A stretch of DNA of 64,000 nt from an uncultured Draconibacterium sp. (GCA_964355945.1 CAYHGE010000001.1:133486-197485), one strand, 5' to 3'; shown: positions 7,471 through 14,947, counted from the first letter of the stretch. The notes: generated by a model not told the origin, from the sequence alone. A program made the numbers and translations.

Positions 7471-8100
7471 TTATTCGGGCCGAAGGCTTTTTAATATCAC
7501 CGTTGTGTTTTCCCGTTTCCGATGATCCATGAGGTTTTGGTATTCAGAATCCTGCATGGTTGTTATTGTCTTCAGGAAAGGGCCGGCGATAAACAATCCC
7601 AAATTCATGGAGAGGATCGTGAGCAAAAGTCCGGTTGCGGTCATGGGGCGGATGGCGCCCTTTTCTATTTCGAGGTTTAATTCACTTTCAATCTGTGATA
7701 TAAATGAATTTTCGGAATTTCCAATTTGTACTTTAAGTTGATTGAGCCGGGAAGGGCTTGTGTTTATTTCATTGAAGAAAAGAAATGGCAGTCCGGGGTT
7801 TGCCATCATGACATCAAAGTGTATCTCAACTTTTTTTCGCACTTTTTCTTCGAATGAAAGATGATCTTCCATTCGTTGAAGAAGGGAAGATATAAAGATC
7901 GTGGAGTGTTTTTCAAATACAGCATCAAAAAGCCGGTCCTTCGTGCGGAAATAGTAGTGAACCAGTGCCTGGTTGCAACCGGCGATCTTTGCAATTTCAG
8001 TGGTTGAGGTTAATGAATAACCTTTTTCCAGGAATAACTTCTCTGCGGTTGCAAGGATTAACTGTTCGGTGGTGATGTTTTGAGTCAGATCTTTTTTCAT
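7471..8100 (-). CDS. TetR/AcrR family transcriptional regulator
   Basis: The N-terminal HTH segment is TSTTEIAKIAGCNQALVHYYFRTKDRLF. The length is 209 aa. Confidence 0.85.
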   Translation of the reverse strand: MKKDLTQNITTEQLILATAEKLFLEKGYSLTSTTEIAKIAGCNQALVHYYFRTKDRLFDAVFEKHSTIFISSLLQRMEDHLSFEEKVRKKVEIHFDVMMANPGLPFLFFNEINTSPSRLNQLKVQIGNSENSFISQIESELNLEIEKGAIRPMTATGLLLTILSMNLGLFIAGPFLKTITTMQDSEYQNLMDHRKRENTTVILKSLRPE

Positions 8101-8200: not shown

Positions 8201-8998
8201 TCAGTAAGTCCCTTTTGATTCAGCTCCGGTAACGACATCAACACTGGCGCCGCAGCCCAGCCGGTTTGCTCCTGCATTGATCAAAGCCACAGCCTGGTCG
8301 AAATTCCTGATACCGCCACTGGCCTTGACACCCATGGCCGGGCCGACGATCCTGCGCATCAGGGCGACATCGTGGATGGTTGCACCCGTGCCTGAGAATC
8401 CGGTACTGGTCTTGACAAAATCAGCTCCGGCTTTCTTTGAAATTTCGCAGGCGATGATTTTTTCTTCATCGGTCAGCAGCCCTGTTTCGAGGATAACTTT
8501 TAAAATGGTGGTGCTCCTGCATGCTCTTTTAATGGCCCGGATATCTTCTTCGACTAACTTTACATTGCCGGATTTCAGGGCGCCCACATTGATTACCATG
8601 TCAAGTTCTGTTGCACCATTGGCCACCGCATTGCGTGCTTCAAAGGCTTTGCTGCGCGTATCCATCTCGCCAAGGGGAAACCCGATGACGGAGCAGACTT
8701 TAACACTCGTTCCACGGAGTCTCTTTGCCACAAAAGGAATCCACGAGGAGTTCACGCATACTGACATGAATTTGTATTTCACCGCTTCGTTGCAGAGCTG
8801 TTCAAACTGGAAAACCACTGCTTCCGGTTTTAGCAGGGTATGATCGATGTATCCGGCAAGTTCTGCAGCTGATATCCGCGGAGCAGGAGAGGACCTGGTA
8901 ACAGGGTCCCCGGTTTTATTGCTGCGGGTCGCGATCTCCTGGTTCAGCCGCTGCATGACCTCTTTCGTGATCTTGTCAATCAATTCATTTTGATCCAT
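8201..8998 (-). CDS. deoC: Deoxyribose-phosphate aldolase (DERA) with an N-terminal extension of about 45 aa
   Basis: DERA motifs are present: YIDHTLLKP, ELDMVINVG, LKVILETG and DFVKTSTGF (the Schiff-base Lys motif). At 265 aa it is longer than typical DERAs of about 220 aa. Confidence 0.9.
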   Translation of the reverse strand: MDQNELIDKITKEVMQRLNQEIATRSNKTGDPVTRSSPAPRISAAELAGYIDHTLLKPEAVVFQFEQLCNEAVKYKFMSVCVNSSWIPFVAKRLRGTSVKVCSVIGFPLGEMDTRSKAFEARNAVANGATELDMVINVGALKSGNVKLVEEDIRAIKRACRSTTILKVILETGLLTDEEKIIACEISKKAGADFVKTSTGFSGTGATIHDVALMRRIVGPAMGVKASGGIRNFDQAVALINAGANRLGCGASVDVVTGAESKGTY

Positions 8999-8999
8999 G

Positions 9000-9455
9000 T
9001 TATTTCCCTTCCCTTTCTATTGACATCATTTTATTAATCCGCGGCCAGTGCCTGCCGCCTTCAAATTTTGTTTCAAGCCACAATTTCGCCATTGCACACA
9101 GCTCTTCCTTCGGATGCTGGGCAGTTCCCATCGTCAGCACATTCGCATTGTTATGCTCGCGGCTGTTGACGATCGTTGCCGTGCTCCAGCATAAGGCTGC
9201 CCTGATGCCATGAACCTTGTTACACACCATGGAAGAGCCGATACCCGCGCCATCCAGCATGATTCCCCGTTCACAGTCCCCGGTCACTACTTTCTGGGCT
9301 ACGGCATGTGCGAAATCAGGATAATCCACTTTATCCGTACTATTATTGGTGCCAACATCGACCATCTTATACCCGGCACTTTCGAGATATCTGATCAGCA
9401 TCTCCTTTGCAAGATATGATCCGTGATCAGCACCGATGGCTACTTTTTTAATCAT
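9000..9455 (-). CDS. rpiB: RpiB/LacA/LacB-family sugar-phosphate isomerase
   Basis: Family motifs are VAIGADHGS, NKVHGIRAALC, EHNNANVLTMG and FEGGRH. The first M in the ORF track is a TTG codon; I prefer the ATG at 9455 (MIKKVAIG). Confidence 0.85.
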   Translation of the reverse strand: MIKKVAIGADHGSYLAKEMLIRYLESAGYKMVDVGTNNSTDKVDYPDFAHAVAQKVVTGDCERGIMLDGAGIGSSMVCNKVHGIRAALCWSTATIVNSREHNNANVLTMGTAQHPKEELCAMAKLWLETKFEGGRHWPRINKMMSIEREGK

Positions 9456-9488
9456 TCGCCTGTATTTCTCTAATCTTTTCAAAATATT

Positions 9489-9770
9489 TCAAACATTGGA
9501 ATCATACTGGATTTTATCCACGATTCCTGCTATAACAGCTTTCACTGTGAATGTATCCGGTTCACCAAGGATTAAACGTGCCGAACCGCCTTCTTCCATG
9601 ATCAGCACGATATCTCCGGGACCTGCCTGCATGGTATCAACCGCAAGAAATGACCTGCCGATGGCTTTTCCATCGGGTTTAACGGGTTGAACAACCAAAA
9701 TCTTCCTGGATTCATACCCGACTGCTTTTATGGTAGAAACCACATTCCCGGTAACTTTCGCCAATATCAT
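9489..9770 (-). CDS. BMC-P pentameric vertex shell protein (EutN/CcmL/PduN family), paralogue 4
   Basis: The N-terminus MILAKVTGNVVSTIK is family-typical and the length is 93 aa. Its ATG overlaps the upstream stop codon (ATGA). Confidence 0.9.
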   Translation of the reverse strand: MILAKVTGNVVSTIKAVGYESRKILVVQPVKPDGKAIGRSFLAVDTMQAGPGDIVLIMEEGGSARLILGEPDTFTVKAVIAGIVDKIQYDSNV

Positions 9771-10042
9771 TTTTTGTCCTCCAGATGAATGTTGTCCACG
9801 ATCCCCACGATTGCAGCATCACAGGGATTCATCAGCGTTTCAAGAACCCTTCCGGCCTCTTTGCTTGTTTCGTAATAGATCAGTTCGCCGATGCCCGACT
9901 GGATTGTGTCGAAAGCAACGAGCGGATCTCCATACGGGACGAGATGCTCATCAACAGGTTGCACAAGCATCAGTTTGATGCCTTCAAACTCGAAGACTTT
10001 CTTCGTGCTTACAACTCTGCCGGTGACTCTTCCAAGTTTCAT
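9767..10042 (-). CDS. BMC-P pentameric vertex shell protein (EutN/CcmL/PduN family), paralogue 3
   Basis: The N-terminus is MKLGRVTGRVVSTKK, followed by ...LVAFDT...AIVGIVD. The length is 91 aa. Confidence 0.9.
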   Translation of the reverse strand: MKLGRVTGRVVSTKKVFEFEGIKLMLVQPVDEHLVPYGDPLVAFDTIQSGIGELIYYETSKEAGRVLETLMNPCDAAIVGIVDNIHLEDKK

Positions 10043-10079
10043 AGCAATCGTTTCTTTTTGATTAACCTCATCCCCTGCA

Positions 10080-10103
10080 CCCCTTCTCCTGAAGGAGAAG
10101 GGG
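10080..10103 (-). other. Perfect 10-bp-stem hairpin inside the BMC operon
   Basis: CCCCTTCTCC-TGAA-GGAGAAGGGG sits in the 121-nt gap between the aldehyde dehydrogenase stop and the next BMC-P start. No U-tract follows it. Confidence 0.6.
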
Positions 10104-10163
10104 ACGGGCGTGGTTCATTTTTCATCAGGTCGTTTTATCACTTTCAGCGATTTGTTTCCGGGA

Positions 10164-11582
10164 TCAAATTATCCTGAAATAGTCAACCAGCGTACACCTG
10201 CGTTCCCGGGAGAAAGTTCTCGCCCTGGTAACGCCTTCACCGGTAGGGCTGGCAATGGTGAAGGATGCAAACCCGGCACCGCCTTGGCCCAGCCCTGCAT
10301 AGCTGGGGCCATTTTTGATAAAGATCGAGCAATTCATCGCTTTGGCCATTTTGCTGAGCTTGGCAATATTGAGGGAGTGCATGATGGCGGTGTGCCGGAA
10401 TCCATGTTCACATTCAACAGCAAGATCAATGGCGGCATCCACGTCTTTCACACGCACCAGGGGCATGACCGGCATCAGCTGTTCGGTCCATACGAGGGGA
10501 TGTTCCTTCCCCACTTCACAAAGCAGGAGCCGGGTTGATGGCGGCACTGTAAGCCCGATTTCCCTGGCAATGGCATCTGCATTCTTGCCGATATACTTCT
10601 TCTCAGCGGCCCCTTCTTTTCCCGGACCACCCGGATCAGAGATAACCAGTGCGGTGATTTTTTTAATTTGTTCAGGATTTAATTCGAAGGCACCGTTTTT
10701 AACCAGCTCTGCTTTTAACCGGTCGGCAACCGATTCAACAACGATGATCTCTTTCTCGCAAATGCAGATGATGTTGTTGTCGAAACCGGCACCATTGACA
10801 ATATCCCTGCCGGCTTTGGCCAGGTCGGCGGTTTCATCCACCACGCAGGGCGGGTTTCCCGGGCCTGCGGCAATGACCTTTTTCCCGCTGTTCATGGCAA
10901 CTTTCACAACGGCGGGGCCGCCTGTGACAACCAGGATGGCAATATCCGGGTGCGACATCAGGCTTTTTGCAGAATCAATGGTTGGTTCATCGATGCAGGT
11001 AAGCAAATTTGCCGGTCCGCCGGCTTCCATGATTGCATGATTAAGCAACGTGATGAGCCATCCGGAGACCTTCTTTGCAGAAGGATGCGGATTAAACACC
11101 ACCGAATTGCCGGCAGCGATCATGCCAATGCTGTTGCTGATGATGGTCACCGTCGGATTTGTACTGGGCGTGATGGAACCGATTACGCCATAGGGCGCAC
11201 GTTCTACAAGAGTTAATCCGTCATCATCCGAATAGGATTCTGATACAATATCTTCGACTCCGGGTGTTTTATGAATTCCCAGGCTGTTTTTAATGATCTT
11301 GTCTTCCCATCGCCCAAGGCCGGTCTCTTCATGGGCCATCCTGGAGATGTTTTCGTTGTTGGCAAGCGCGGTTTTACGGATACTCGTGATGATGTTTTTC
11401 CGGGTTTCCAGGGTTGATCTACTGAACTCCCTGAAAGCCAGTCCGGCAGCTGTAATCGCCTCATTGATGTTAGAAAACACCCCTGCATTTTTTGAAGAAG
11501 CCGCCGTTTTTTGCGGAAAGATGTTCATGTCCTGGATGACGTCCTGCACCAGCTGGCGTATGTTTTTTTCAAGATTGTCCAT
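10164..11582 (-). CDS. CoA-acylating aldehyde dehydrogenase (EutE/PduP-like) with an N-terminal amphipathic extension
   Basis: At 472 aa, it carries the catalytic Cys region GAGFDNNIICICEKE and the C-terminus RRCTLVDYFRII. An AGGAGGG SD lies 8 nt upstream of the ATG. Confidence 0.9.
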   Translation of the reverse strand: MDNLEKNIRQLVQDVIQDMNIFPQKTAASSKNAGVFSNINEAITAAGLAFREFSRSTLETRKNIITSIRKTALANNENISRMAHEETGLGRWEDKIIKNSLGIHKTPGVEDIVSESYSDDDGLTLVERAPYGVIGSITPSTNPTVTIISNSIGMIAAGNSVVFNPHPSAKKVSGWLITLLNHAIMEAGGPANLLTCIDEPTIDSAKSLMSHPDIAILVVTGGPAVVKVAMNSGKKVIAAGPGNPPCVVDETADLAKAGRDIVNGAGFDNNIICICEKEIIVVESVADRLKAELVKNGAFELNPEQIKKITALVISDPGGPGKEGAAEKKYIGKNADAIAREIGLTVPPSTRLLLCEVGKEHPLVWTEQLMPVMPLVRVKDVDAAIDLAVECEHGFRHTAIMHSLNIAKLSKMAKAMNCSIFIKNGPSYAGLGQGGAGFASFTIASPTGEGVTRARTFSRERRCTLVDYFRII

Positions 11583-12140
11583 TTACTTGCCCTCCTGCTG
11601 TAGGAAATATGGTTTTATTTCAGGGTGTGGCTGCGGGATCAGTGTTGACATGCAAAGCAGATCTTTCTCCCGGGCTTTGGCTGTTCCGGCTTCCAGGGCT
11701 GCCTCCATGGCATCCAGCGTTCCGAGCATTTTAACATAAGATTTACCTCCAAAACCGATGGCCAGCCTGATTTCTATTAGTTTAATATTGCTCTCTTTTG
11801 CTGCGAGGTCGGCGGCTTCAATGCTGGATACCACGGATAATGTTTCAATGATTCCGATGGCGTTCCAGTGATCGCAGGCAACAACGTTTCCGATGGCTGG
11901 AACAAGGTCCGGATGGGCCATGGGAAGAAACAGACTGTCGATGATGAAATTTTTACCGATTTCGAAACCTTTATTAAACGAGTATTCCACAGATGCAACA
12001 TCCCCGCTGAAGACGATCAGGTATTTGCCGGGGCAAAGCGTCCTGGCTTCAATGATTCTGACCGGAGCAATCTTTACCATTTCATCCAGTGCCTTGATCC
12101 CGATAGCAATGCTGCTATACTCCAATACCCCCAAAACCAT
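11583..12140 (-). CDS. BMC-T tandem-domain shell protein, PduT-like
   Basis: It has two BMC repeats in about 185 aa (LGVLEYSSIAIG... and IGIIETLSVVSSIEAAD...). The segment RTLCPGKYLIVFSGDV resembles the PduT Fe-S cluster Cys motif (TICPGKF). The first ORF-track M is a TTG; an ATG is at 12140. Confidence 0.8.
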   Translation of the reverse strand: MVLGVLEYSSIAIGIKALDEMVKIAPVRIIEARTLCPGKYLIVFSGDVASVEYSFNKGFEIGKNFIIDSLFLPMAHPDLVPAIGNVVACDHWNAIGIIETLSVVSSIEAADLAAKESNIKLIEIRLAIGFGGKSYVKMLGTLDAMEAALEAGTAKAREKDLLCMSTLIPQPHPEIKPYFLQQEGK

Positions 12141-12159
12141 CAATTCCGCCGATCCCTCA

Positions 12160-12447
12160 TTATTTCATGTATGTAACCTGCTCATTTTCATCAATCTTGT
12201 CGACAATCCCCACGATCAGTGCATCAACTGGCTTGTTGGTCGTAAGCGGTGTTTCCCTGGAAGGGCTGCCTTCCGTGACCATCACCAGTTCATCATGACC
12301 TGCACCTAGAACATCGAGTGCAACAAGGTAGTCTCCTTTTCTTTCACCATGCTGATTTGACTTCTCAACCAGGAGATATCGGGCTCCGTTCATGCTGTCA
12401 TTTCTTGAACTGCAAACGACTGTTCCGACTACTTTGGCTAGGATCAT
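12160..12447 (-). CDS. BMC-P pentameric vertex shell protein (EutN/CcmL/PduN family), paralogue 2
   Basis: The N-terminus is MILAKVVGTVVCSSR, followed by ...LVALDVLGAG...LIVGIVDKI. The length is 95 aa. Confidence 0.9.
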   Translation of the reverse strand: MILAKVVGTVVCSSRNDSMNGARYLLVEKSNQHGERKGDYLVALDVLGAGHDELVMVTEGSPSRETPLTTNKPVDALIVGIVDKIDENEQVTYMK

Positions 12448-12454
12448 GGGTCAG

Positions 12455-12751
12455 TTACCTGTTTTTCTGATACGTAAACGCGCCATCCTTTTCAATGTGA
12501 TCCACAATGGCAATGACGGCAGAATCAGAAGGCTTTCCTTCGGTCACATCGGTATTCCTGGCACTGCTGCCGGATACATAGAATACGATGTCTCCCGGTC
12601 CAGCACCCACACTGTCCATGGAAACGACAAAGTCACCTTTGCCTTTCATGCTCACAGGGTCGATTTTATCGAGTAGGAGGAATTTTATCCCTTCTATTTT
12701 CTGTGACTTATGACTGGAAACGACTGTTCCCACTACTCTTGCCAGAACCAT
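12455..12751 (-). CDS. BMC-P pentameric vertex shell protein (EutN/CcmL/PduN family), paralogue 1
   Basis: The N-terminus is MVLARVVGTVVSSHK, followed by ...VVSMDSVGAGPGD...AVIAIVDHI. The length is 98 aa. Confidence 0.9.
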   Translation of the reverse strand: MVLARVVGTVVSSHKSQKIEGIKFLLLDKIDPVSMKGKGDFVVSMDSVGAGPGDIVFYVSGSSARNTDVTEGKPSDSAVIAIVDHIEKDGAFTYQKNR

Positions 12752-12754
12752 TTT

Positions 12755-12790
12755 GATTTACGATTGGGGGATTTACGATTTACGATTTGA
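12755..12790. repeat. Imperfect 7-bp tandem repeat (GATTTAC) in the BMC-H / BMC-P spacer
   Basis: The sequence reads GATTTAC GATTGGG G GATTTAC GATTTAC GATTTGA. Confidence 0.8.
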
Positions 12791-12796
12791 GGTTTG

Positions 12797-13099
12797 CTAT
12801 TTTTTGGTGGTGCCTCTGCCCAATGGTAAAGCGCTGTCAACATTCTGGTGAGGTCTTGGGATGACGTGGGATGAAACAAGTTCACCGACTTTCTGGGCAG
12901 CCTGAACGCCGGCATCCACTGCAGCTCTTACTGAGGCAACATCACCGCGGACGATTGCAGTGACGTATCCACCACCAATTTTTTCGTAACCGACCAATTC
13001 TACTTTGGCAGCTTTTACCATTGCATCCGATGCCTCCACCATGGCGGAAAAGCCCCTGGTTTCTATCATTCCCAATGCTTCTGAAGTTTGATCATTCAT
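12797..13099 (-). CDS. BMC-H hexameric shell protein (PduA/EutM/CcmK-like)
   Basis: It carries the canonical BMC domain: [65 protein letters not shown] precedes the ATG. Confidence 0.95.
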
Positions 13100-13133
13100 G
13101 ATTATTTCTCCTTATTGATTAGTTGTTTATGTT

Positions 13134-13757
13134 TTATTTGTAATCCTCCCTGCCGGATATTTCGGCCAGGCGTTGTTCCACAATTGTTTTACATTCAAGT
13201 ACTTCTGCTTCTTCACCGCCAATATAGACCCTGCCGAACTTGCCAAATCCCATCACATCGATGATGTTGATATGGGCTGCTTTTTCTGCTTCATTGGCGG
13301 CATAATAGGCATATCCGGCGGGCTCAACTTCGAGGACAAACAGTGTGTCGCCTCTCAGCAGCATCATGCCCATCCGGGTCCGGTTGATCAGCTGGGCATG
13401 GTGATCTTCCACATTTTTAATCAGCTGACTTGTCAGGATCCGTGGTTTTATCCTGTCAAATTCAATTTTGTCGATGGCTTTCAACACCGCTTCGCCTGCC
13501 ATACGGGTTTCGCCCTGGCTGTCGGAATGGACTTCCAGCATGCCATAAGCCCTTTCGACGATTTGCATGCCCGGTGTTACACGGGTTGCCTTCAGGGCAA
13601 TGTCGGTGAGGGTGTTGATCTCTATTCCGGGCGCTATTTCTATGATACAGCATGCCTGTCCTGCAACAGGGAGGTAACCTCTTGATACGGTTGAGAGGTA
13701 AGAGGCCATCTGTAATTGCAGGGAGTCCAGAAAAATGTAGGTTCTTAGATCAATCAT
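13134..13757 (-). CDS. BMC-T tandem permuted-domain shell protein, CcmP/CsoS1D-like (double-stacking, gated-pore type)
   Basis: It is colinear by eye with CcmP: LRTYIFLDSLQ, GIEINTLTDIALKATRV.PG, YGMLEVHS, QLINRTRMG, LFVLEVEPAGYA and ANEAEKAA. The ORF-track start at 13787 is a TTG; I prefer the ATG at 13757 (MIDLRTY). Confidence 0.8.
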   Translation of the reverse strand: MIDLRTYIFLDSLQLQMASYLSTVSRGYLPVAGQACCIIEIAPGIEINTLTDIALKATRVTPGMQIVERAYGMLEVHSDSQGETRMAGEAVLKAIDKIEFDRIKPRILTSQLIKNVEDHHAQLINRTRMGMMLLRGDTLFVLEVEPAGYAYYAANEAEKAAHINIIDVMGFGKFGRVYIGGEEAEVLECKTIVEQRLAEISGREDYK

Positions 13758-13861
13758 GGTTGCTTTTTTTATACCGCTAAGGCGCAAAGACGCAAATAAA
13801 TAAGAAAACCGTTGCTTTTTAGCGTCTTGCCGTCTTCGCGGTGAATAAGGACTTTATGTTG

Positions 13862-13869
13862 CAAAGATA
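13862..13869 (-). promoter_or_regulatory. Candidate Bacteroidota sigma-A -7 box (TATCTTTG on the minus strand) for the BMC operon
   Basis: It matches TAnnTTTG and lies about 105 nt upstream of the first BMC gene's ATG. Confidence 0.4.
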
Positions 13870-13957
13870 GTTTTTTATACAACAATATTTAATGGTGATT
13901 TGCATCAAAAGATCATTTTTGAAACAGCCAAGATCGAGCTTTGAAATTTAAAAATCC

Positions 13958-13965
13958 TACCTTTG
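13958..13965 (+). promoter_or_regulatory. Candidate -7 box TACCTTTG for rlmF
   Basis: It matches TAnnTTTG and lies 14 nt upstream of the ATG at 13979. The same octamer recurs upstream of two other genes in this window. Confidence 0.5.
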
Positions 13966-13978
13966 TTCAAAAAACACC

Positions 13979-14947
13979 ATGCTCCCGAAGAAGAAAGACC
14001 ACCCCAAAGAAAAAACCAGGTTGCATCCCCGGAACAGGCATCGTGAGCGGTATGATTTTAAAGCACTTGTGGCAACCTGCCCGGAATTGGCTCAGTTCGT
14101 TACCCTGAATGTTTACAAAGACGAATCAATTGCCTTTTCAGATCCTGAAGCGGTGAAGATGCTGAACAAAGCGTTGCTTAATCACTTCTACGGCATCAGC
14201 AGCTGGGATATACCACCCGGGTATTTATGTCCGCCCATCCCGGGTCGGGCCGATTATATCCATCATCTTGCTGATTTATTGGGCAGCAAAAACTTTGGGA
14301 AAATACCAACAGGCGTGAATATCAGGTGTCTGGATATAGGAACAGGTGCCAATTGCGTTTATCCGATCATCGGGAACAAAGAATATGGCTGGTCGTTTAT
14401 CGGTTCTGATATTGATCCGGTTGCCATCGAATCTGCGAATAAAATTATTGACCTGAACACTGAATTAAAAGAATCTGTTGTTGTTCGTTTACAGCCTCAG
14501 CCCAATGATATTTTTTTCGGGATCATCCAACCTGAAGAGCTCTTCGATTTGTCTGTTTGTAATCCTCCGTTTCACGGTTCTCAAGCTGAAGCACAGTCAG
14601 GCACACTGAGGAAGCTGAATAACCTCAATCCGCAAAAGGTGACTGAGCCCGTTTTAAATTTCGGAGGCCAGAACAGTGAATTGTGGTGCAAGGGAGGCGA
14701 GGAGAAATTTGTGCGGGACATGGTTCGGCAAAGCAAATTTTTCGCTGAATCCTGTTTTTGGTATTCCACGCTTATTTCTAAACAATCCCATCTGAAAAGT
14801 GTGTATGAAGCATTGGAAAAAGAACGGGCTGTTGAGGTGAAGACGATCCCGATGGGCCAGGGAAATAAATCGAGCAGGGTGGTGGCCTGGACATTTCTTA
14901 CCCATGAGCAGCAAGGAGCCTGGCGCAATTCAAGATGGAAAGGTTAA
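13979..14947 (+). CDS. rlmF: 23S rRNA (adenine1618-N6)-methyltransferase RlmF
   Basis: Motifs are LHPRNRHRERYDF, CLDIGTGANCVYP and the N6-MTase motif CNPPFH. The length is 322 aa. Confidence 0.85.
   Translation: MLPKKKDHPKEKTRLHPRNRHRERYDFKALVATCPELAQFVTLNVYKDESIAFSDPEAVKMLNKALLNHFYGISSWDIPPGYLCPPIPGRADYIHHLADLLGSKNFGKIPTGVNIRCLDIGTGANCVYPIIGNKEYGWSFIGSDIDPVAIESANKIIDLNTELKESVVVRLQPQPNDIFFGIIQPEELFDLSVCNPPFHGSQAEAQSGTLRKLNNLNPQKVTEPVLNFGGQNSELWCKGGEEKFVRDMVRQSKFFAESCFWYSTLISKQSHLKSVYEALEKERAVEVKTIPMGQGNKSSRVVAWTFLTHEQQGAWRNSRWKG

Follow-up and report, generated by a model that had tools for sequence, protein, structure and literature searches.

An SPU2-type microcompartment locus in an uncultured Draconibacterium genome, and how its cofactors may be recycled

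Gene clusters that combine a deoxyribose-phosphate aldolase (DERA), a protein like RpiB and an aldehyde dehydrogenase (AldDH) with the kind of shell set described below belong to the sugar-phosphate-utilising (SPU) bacterial microcompartments (BMC). One of these types, SPU2, has been catalogued mostly from Bacteroidetes and Spirochaetes (Sutter et al. 2021, Nat Commun 12:3809, Supplementary Data 2). The only enzymes of its loci are an AldDH, a pfam01791 protein and a pfam02502 protein, with TIM, phosphotransacylase (PTAC) and alcohol dehydrogenase rare and no satellite loci; its shell is made of one or two BMC-H proteins, a BMC-P triplet plus one extra copy, a BMC-Tdp tile of the CcmP clade and a BMC-Ts tile, which has a pore Cys in 80% of loci, a PduS homologue being present in only a quarter (Sutter et al. 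2021). The supply of NAD+ and CoA in metabolosomes that have no PTAC, alcohol dehydrogenase or MNdh is an acknowledged open question, and several such types have been listed (Sutter 2024, PNAS 121:e2414220121). Here we analyse a stretch of 64,000 nucleotides from an uncultured Draconibacterium sp. (GCA_964355945.1, CAYHGE010000001.1:133486-197485; “the window”), in which ten tightly packed genes on the minus strand (8201-13787) encode a standard SPU2-type metabolosome of an anaerobic Bacteroidales bacterium. The locus is SPU2 on every defining feature examined, and both its architecture and its lack of cofactor recyclers are already known as published traits of the type. An earlier sequence-only reading of the window missed that the locus is a catalogued type, and its observation, though correct in all its details, restates published points, as do two of its three inferences.

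The assignment to SPU2 follows from an item-by-item match to the published description. Open reading frame mapping with Pfam and NCBIfam searches places all ten genes where the sequence-only reading had put them, in the order CcmP-like BMC-Tdp, BMC-H, two BMC-P, PduT-like BMC-Ts, AldDH, two further BMC-P, RpiB-like protein and DERA. The pfam01791 DERA is encoded together with the shell genes in one operon and is adjoined by a pfam02502 RpiB-type protein that has Asp in place of the catalytic Cys. The acylating AldDH carries an N-terminal encapsulation peptide, and the enzyme set is limited, with no satellite loci, across the locus, its flanks and the genome. The shell composition (one BMC-H, four EutN_CcmL-family BMC-P, one CcmP-like BMC-Tdp and one PduT-like BMC-Ts) is likewise that of SPU2. 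The shell encoded by the locus is complete, and a genome-wide search found no other BMC-domain or EutN-domain genes elsewhere in the assembly. A locus labelled SPU2 in a published BMC-Tdp tree, that of Bacteroidetes GWA2_32_17, has the same gene order and a BMC-Tdp protein 84% identical to the one in the window.

How widespread is this arrangement? A scan of relatives, limited to one genome per species, gave 346 stretches encoding a relative of the CcmP-like tile, and the best 80 of these, nearly all from metagenome-assembled genomes of Bacteroidales, were examined. The order (H)-Tdp-H-P-P-Ts-AldDH-P-P-RpiB-DeoC is kept in about 70 of the best 80 loci. Elsewhere in the order, with one genome sampled per family, the CcmP-like tile occurs in 3 of 120 other families, and the locus is therefore patchy but widespread.

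Encapsulation peptides mark two of the three enzymes. DERA has an N-terminal extension of about 45 residues. First comes the encapsulation peptide DQNELIDKITKEVMQRLNQ, whose helix is conserved in all relatives (56 distinct orthologous N-termini), and then a variable linker in which Pro, Ser and Thr abound. The N-terminus of AldDH is organised in the same way, with the encapsulation peptide MDNLEKNIRQLVQDVIQDM and then a linker; among 72 orthologues the helix is conserved and the linker variable. Profiles built from 56 DERA-peptide and 63 AldDH-peptide sequences were searched against all open frames of at least 120 codons in this genome. They match their own proteins only (4.2e-13 for DERA and 6.5e-13 for AldDH), and no other frame in that set carries either peptide at E < 0.1. 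Weak profile matches to a histidine kinase (contig C18), a seryl-tRNA synthetase (C15) and an orotate phosphoribosyltransferase (C123), all unrelated housekeeping proteins, were dismissed as chance. The third enzyme, the RpiB-like protein, has an N-terminus that is variable, basic and often absent among relatives, with no clear encapsulation peptide. Its Asp (9252-9254) replaces the catalytic Cys of RpiB, giving ‘LDGAG’ where the aligned enzymes of E. coli (1NN4) and C. thermocellum (3HE8) read ‘ICGTG’. This trait is already known and not new: the Cys-to-Asp change occurs in all SPU RPIs, which have negligible ribose-5-phosphate isomerase activity and form a complex with DERA (Dwyer, Sutter & Kerfeld 2024, Commun Biol 7:1562; hereafter Dwyer 2024).

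The sequence-only reading had stated that no cofactor-recycling enzyme is encoded in the locus or beside it, and Pfam and NCBIfam searches agree, finding no PTAC, alcohol dehydrogenase or acetate kinase in the locus or the flanking genes. It had also allowed that recyclers bearing encapsulation peptides might be encoded elsewhere, and had proposed a genome search for tagged products of pduL, pta, adh and ackA. At 89% completeness, the assembly of this genome totals 3.70 Mb, divided among 137 contigs. Together with five larger relatives, two of which are complete chromosomes of 5.5 and 5.6 Mb, and 16 more genomes, one of them with locus proteins 93-100% identical to those of the window, it makes up a set of 22 locus-bearing genomes, which were reached through their loci and are related, so that counts across them are not independent. 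PduL (PF06130) is in none of the 22, and no PTAC or alcohol dehydrogenase recurs in the flanks of the loci of about 70 relatives. No tagged satellite PTAC or alcohol dehydrogenase turned up. With no PduL in the 22 genomes, no tag on AckA or on the Fe-type alcohol dehydrogenase (Fe-ADH), and peptide profiles that match DERA and AldDH only, a satellite recycling locus, which the earlier proposal had allowed for, is not supported.

Candidate recyclers can be found in the genome, and each was read individually. The only full-length match to the PTA_PTB family is the C-terminal domain of a 764-residue NADP-malic enzyme, MaeB, and was rejected as a Pta on that ground. The apparent absence of ptb is an assembly artefact, the gene being split at a contig end: its last 16 codons open contig C28 (C28:1-48) and are followed by an amino-acid permease gene and buk. 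A plain family search would report ptb as absent from this genome. Relatives carry a 300-residue phosphate butyryltransferase encoded beside butyrate kinase. No tag precedes the catalytic domain of AckA (404 residues), of Buk or of the single YqhD-like Fe-ADH, each of which begins right at that domain, and the Fe-ADHs of the two complete relatives and of the relative with the 93-100% identical locus do so too. In one complete relative the Fe-ADH sits in a frame of 454 codons; its plausible start is at the domain, and the stretch upstream is unlike an encapsulation peptide. Genes found around the loci of relatives were set aside as well. Neither the sporadic operon inserts of a few relatives, nor the recurring flank genes (RecQ, a KpsF/GutQ-like isomerase, LptB and a carboxymuconolactone-decarboxylase-family protein), nor the aldo-keto reductase in the flanks of four relatives' loci is a PTAC, an alcohol dehydrogenase or an MNdh, and none of them is in the window.

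Reducing equivalents can also leave a shell as electrons. MNdh proteins, which are PduS homologues, take electrons from NADH and relay them, by way of clusters of their own, to the cluster in the pore of a BMC-T tile with a CP(G/S)K motif; the Fe-S tiles export electrons only together with MNdh/PduS, and MNdh always co-occurs with a CP(G/S)K tile but not vice versa (Sutter 2024). When MNdh/PduS is recognised by the combination of pfam01512, pfam10531, an Fe-S dicluster and pfam13375, none is found in any of the 22 locus-bearing genomes. The six Complex1_51K genes of this genome were rejected as PduS, all being NuoF-like and located in complex I or NuoE/F/G-type hydrogenase-like operons. They are spread over contigs C11, C15, C41, C73 and C100, the NuoE/F/G-type operons being hydrogenase- or formate-dehydrogenase-like. 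RnfC_N matches in the 21 relatives were rejected as MNdh, every significant one being an RnfC flanked by rnfB and rnfD. This genome has no Rnf complex; that and its six NuoF-like genes suggest an anaerobe that lives by fermentation and has many ways to reoxidise NADH in the cytosol. The CP(G/S)K motif is present in the PduT-like tile and MNdh is missing; the known mechanism of electron export therefore cannot operate here. Of the suggestion in the sequence-only reading that electrons pass through an Fe-S tile, the tile and its conserved CPGK motif survive, but the only known electron donor is missing from all 22 genomes.

Because no PduL, no tagged recycler and no MNdh were found, exchange of cofactors across the shell is the likeliest reading, reached by inference and already published as a hypothesis for PTAC-less SPU types (Dwyer 2024). 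On balance, we think it probable that the locus specifies an SPU2 metabolosome with no private recycling of CoA or NAD+, whose cofactors exchange with the cytosol, most plausibly via the CcmP-like pore. DERA would yield glyceraldehyde 3-phosphate and acetaldehyde inside the shell, where AldDH would then form acetyl-CoA and NADH. Given no internal recycler, CoA/acetyl-CoA and NAD+/NADH would therefore have to exchange with the cytosol, and their most plausible route would be the CcmP-like tile, whose large gated pore is, as far as present structures show, the sole one in the shell set that is big enough. CoA could be regenerated there, in the cytosol, with a gain of ATP, by a Ptb-type phosphotransacylase acting with AckA or Buk, and complex I and several NuoF-containing hydrogenase-like complexes could reoxidise NADH.

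The tile to which this role would fall was called CcmP/CsoS1D-like in the sequence-only reading, rightly so. It has the two permuted BMC domains, within about 205 residues, and the full-length CcmP homology of the CcmP/CsoS1D class of BMC-Tdp: residues 12-214 align to residues 17-219 of CcmP (4HT5) at 7.2e-70. Its score of 281.8 bits against NF053796 lies below the 340-bit equivalog cut-off of that model. It also aligns to BMC-T2/T3 of H. ochraceum (5V76/5V74) and, more weakly, to CsoS1D (2e-51). The gate pair of CcmP, Glu69/Arg70, corresponds to E78/R79 here, a pair that all 88 of the Tdp orthologues share. The position at which the earlier reading ended its range, 13757, is likely the true ATG of the BMC-Tdp gene and gives a protein of 207 residues, as in relatives. 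PTAC-less SPU types typically encode a BMC-Tdp, and acetyl-CoA has been proposed to leave their shells via its pore (Dwyer 2024). According to the catalogue, what BMC-Tdp tiles carry may be sugar phosphates or large cofactors (Sutter et al. 2021).

Several points weigh against cofactor exchange. Passage of NAD(H) or CoA through any BMC-Tdp pore has never been directly shown, here or elsewhere, and published work also assigns the tile to sugar phosphates. Enzymes with no tag of their own could be packaged via a tagged partner, as RPI binds DERA in SPU6 (Dwyer 2024), and AK and RPI bind shells (Asgard preprint). The genome is in 137 contigs and 89% complete, so the absences rest partly on relatives. 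A further difficulty is where the presumed substrate, deoxyribose 5-phosphate, would come from: the bacterial-type phosphopentomutase DeoB (TIGR01696) was not found in this genome or in eight others with the locus, two complete chromosomes among them, and the usual deoxynucleoside route to that substrate is therefore not accounted for. Finally, the strict conservation of a pore Cys in the PduT-like tile hints at a function that the cofactor-exchange model leaves unexplained.

Could electrons cross the shell instead of cofactors? A 4Fe-4S cluster at the pore of the PduT-like tile would then take over electrons from NADH in the lumen and hand them to an acceptor in the cytosol, with an unrecognised luminal partner replacing MNdh/PduS. 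The tile's CP(G/S)K motif is exactly that of tiles which transfer electrons. It aligns end to end with the PduT structures 3PAC (5.8e-38) and 3N79 (3.1e-35), and also with 3NWG (8.3e-40), and in ‘CPGK’ its Cys takes the place of the pore Cys of PduT, at which the C38S mutant entry 4NWN reads ‘SPGK’. For both special tiles, alignment to solved structures, of PduT here and of CcmP above, settles the fold and the key residues. The codon, read directly, is the TGC at 12035-12033, within ARTLCPGKY. The sequence-only reading had identified this residue correctly as the pore Cys36; the number is 36 with the ATG at 12140 as start codon and 37 with the TTG at 12143. Of 73 orthologous tiles, 61 have Cys at this position and 12 have Ser. 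All 12 Ser tiles also have Ser at the adjacent Pro (Ser-Ser for Cys-Pro), and they form one clade with branch support 100/95, so that a single change on the tree explains them. In 60 distinct Cys-bearing sequences, which share 45-98% pairwise identity, the pore Cys is among only 34 invariant positions of 186, within the 18% most conserved.

This pattern suggests that the pore Cys is not drifting but has been kept under selection although MNdh/PduS is missing, and its conservation in genomes with no MNdh argues against neutral retention. A relay nevertheless has to contend with the absence of MNdh/PduS from the 22 genomes, and no further protein of this genome bears either encapsulation peptide. 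To our knowledge AldDH has no flavin or other means of giving single electrons to a cluster, which also counts against the idea. The clade of 12 loci that exchanged Cys-Pro for Ser-Ser retains the same minimal enzyme set, and the pore Cys is therefore not indispensable; CoA, moreover, would stay unrecycled by such a route. We consider export of electrons in place of cofactors unlikely. The wider proposition, that the selected Cys reflects a working Fe-S cluster in the tile, is doubtful, yet we keep it in view; the tile might hand on electrons together with a luminal partner, or it might be a plug that responds to redox state and so controls passage across the shell.

A different solution would leave recycling inside the shell. 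Recyclers encoded elsewhere, a Ptb-type phosphotransacylase and the YqhD-like Fe-ADH, might enter with no recognisable tag by binding DERA, AldDH or the shell, and there is precedent for packaging through partner binding. The genome does have ptb (split by the contig end), buk, ackA and one Fe-ADH, and one relative has ackA, ptb and buk side by side. Set against this, each candidate starts directly at its catalytic domain, the encapsulation-peptide profiles match nothing further, and in about 70 relatives none of the candidates is linked to the locus; the catalogue lists no satellite loci for SPU2 (Sutter et al. 2021). The operon that contains ptb, together with an amino-acid permease gene and buk, suggests a part in the fermentation of amino acids or to butyrate. 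Recruitment of this kind is quite improbable in our view.

We give very little weight to the proposal, made for SPU2 by the authors of the catalogue (Sutter et al. 2021), that the pore Cys is a leftover in a tile that is purely structural and without redox role after a recent loss of PduS: the missing MNdh partner and the Ser-Ser clade, which shows the Cys to be dispensable, would suit it, but a residue that never varies in 60 distinct sequences diverged to 45% identity, stands among the 18% most conserved positions and was lost a single time on the whole tree, with MNdh missing across many families and not merely on recent branches, is a poor fit to recent PduS loss with neutral drift.

Cofactor exchange across the shell thus stays the preferred reading of a locus whose features, with its neighbours, are listed in Table 1. 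The flanking genes named in the sequence-only reading, a TetR-family gene on one side and rlmF on the other, were both recovered. The TetR-family gene is kept after DeoC in the closest relatives (L012-L022), with 60-96% identity, and is possibly the local regulator of the operon; in more distant loci no TetR gene occupies the position downstream of DERA. Upstream, most relatives (gene maps of L013-L091) have a second BMC-H gene directly before BMC-Tdp. It is missing in the window (13788-13978) and in the nearest relative, L012, and rlmF is found there instead. In five relatives (L084, L085, L086, L090 and L091) RpiB and DERA are fused into a protein of about 425 residues, the DERA peptide lying between the two domains. 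All five are SPU2-like loci of Bacteroidales and fall in the clade whose BMC-Ts has Ser-Ser for Cys-Pro; the literature describes the fusion for SPU3.

Table 1. Genes of the SPU2-type locus and its immediate neighbours, in window coordinates
Feature	Position	Strand	Supporting match
CcmP-like double-domain BMC-T (BMC-Tdp)	13134..13787	-	NCBIfam NF053796 CcmP, 281.8 bits
BMC-H hexamer shell protein, sole copy in locus	12797..13099	-	Pfam BMC, 112.7 bits
BMC-P pentamer protein 1	12455..12751	-	Pfam EutN_CcmL, 80.6 bits
BMC-P pentamer protein 2	12160..12447	-	Pfam EutN_CcmL, 91.8 bits
PduT-like tandem-domain BMC-T (BMC-Ts)	11583..12143	-	two BMC domains, 125.9 bits
CoA-acylating aldehyde dehydrogenase (AldDH, EutE/PduP type)	10164..11582	-	NF011927, 682.5 bits
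BMC-P pentamer protein 3	9767..10042	-	Pfam EutN_CcmL, 84 bits
BMC-P pentamer protein 4	9489..9770	-	Pfam EutN_CcmL, 80 bits
RpiB-like protein	9000..9482	-	LacAB_rpiB, 164.7 bits
Deoxyribose-phosphate aldolase (DERA), signature enzyme	8201..8998	-	TIGR00126 deoC, 283.6 bits, match from residue 46
TetR-family regulator, downstream of DERA, same strand	7471..8100	-	NCBIfam TetR-family matches
rlmF, divergent upstream neighbour, outside the system	13979..14947	+	NF008725 RlmF, 444.3 bits (cut-off 302 bits)

The window holds one more copy of a catalogued type and opens no new route to the recycling question. Two things are added here: negative results from searches of 22 whole genomes, and the way in which the orphan pore Cys is conserved. 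These narrow the options for the SPU2 loci of Bacteroidales, in which there are no hidden recycling genes, no further tagged protein, and an Fe-S-type pore Cys conserved without its known partner. The group is a clean test case both for the permeability of BMC-Tdp and for spectroscopy of an orphan Fe-S tile.

Set beside described systems, the locus resembles several in part and one almost entirely. Its PduT-like tile has the tandem-BMC fold of PduT seen in the MNdh/BMC-T^SE module, and also the CPGK motif at the pore that in BMC-T^SE binds a 4Fe-4S cluster. No MNdh lies beside the tile, in the genome or in the 21 related genomes, however; the module of flavoprotein and tile is incomplete, and the locus is not a member of it because the partner is missing. 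With the PDU and EUT metabolosomes of Salmonella it has in common a shell around an aldehyde-producing signature enzyme and a CoA-acylating AldDH directed there by a peptide at its N-terminus. Those systems carry PduL or Pta for CoA and PduQ or EutG for NAD+ inside the shell and have no BMC-Tdp, whereas this locus encodes a BMC-Tdp and neither recycling enzyme. The core of an encapsulated PTAC and alcohol dehydrogenase is not found here, and the locus is not a metabolosome of the complete-core PDU/EUT kind. Its BMC-Tdp is close to the CcmP/CsoS1D tiles of carboxysomes and to H. ochraceum BMC-T2/T3, with strong full-length alignment and the conserved Glu/Arg gate pair, but serves a catabolic, aldehyde-oxidising compartment and not a carboxysome. 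The likeness to SPU2 (Sutter et al. 2021; Dwyer 2024) extends to an identical enzyme set of DERA, RpiB-like protein and AldDH only, to the N-terminal encapsulation peptides, the shell set and the taxon, Bacteroidetes, and to the replacement of Cys by Asp that all SPU RPIs are reported to have. The gene order is that of the catalogued SPU2 genome GWA2_32_17. Nothing substantial sets the locus apart from that type: it has one BMC-H where most Bacteroidales relatives have two, and the TetR-family gene and rlmF are lineage-specific neighbours of this copy.

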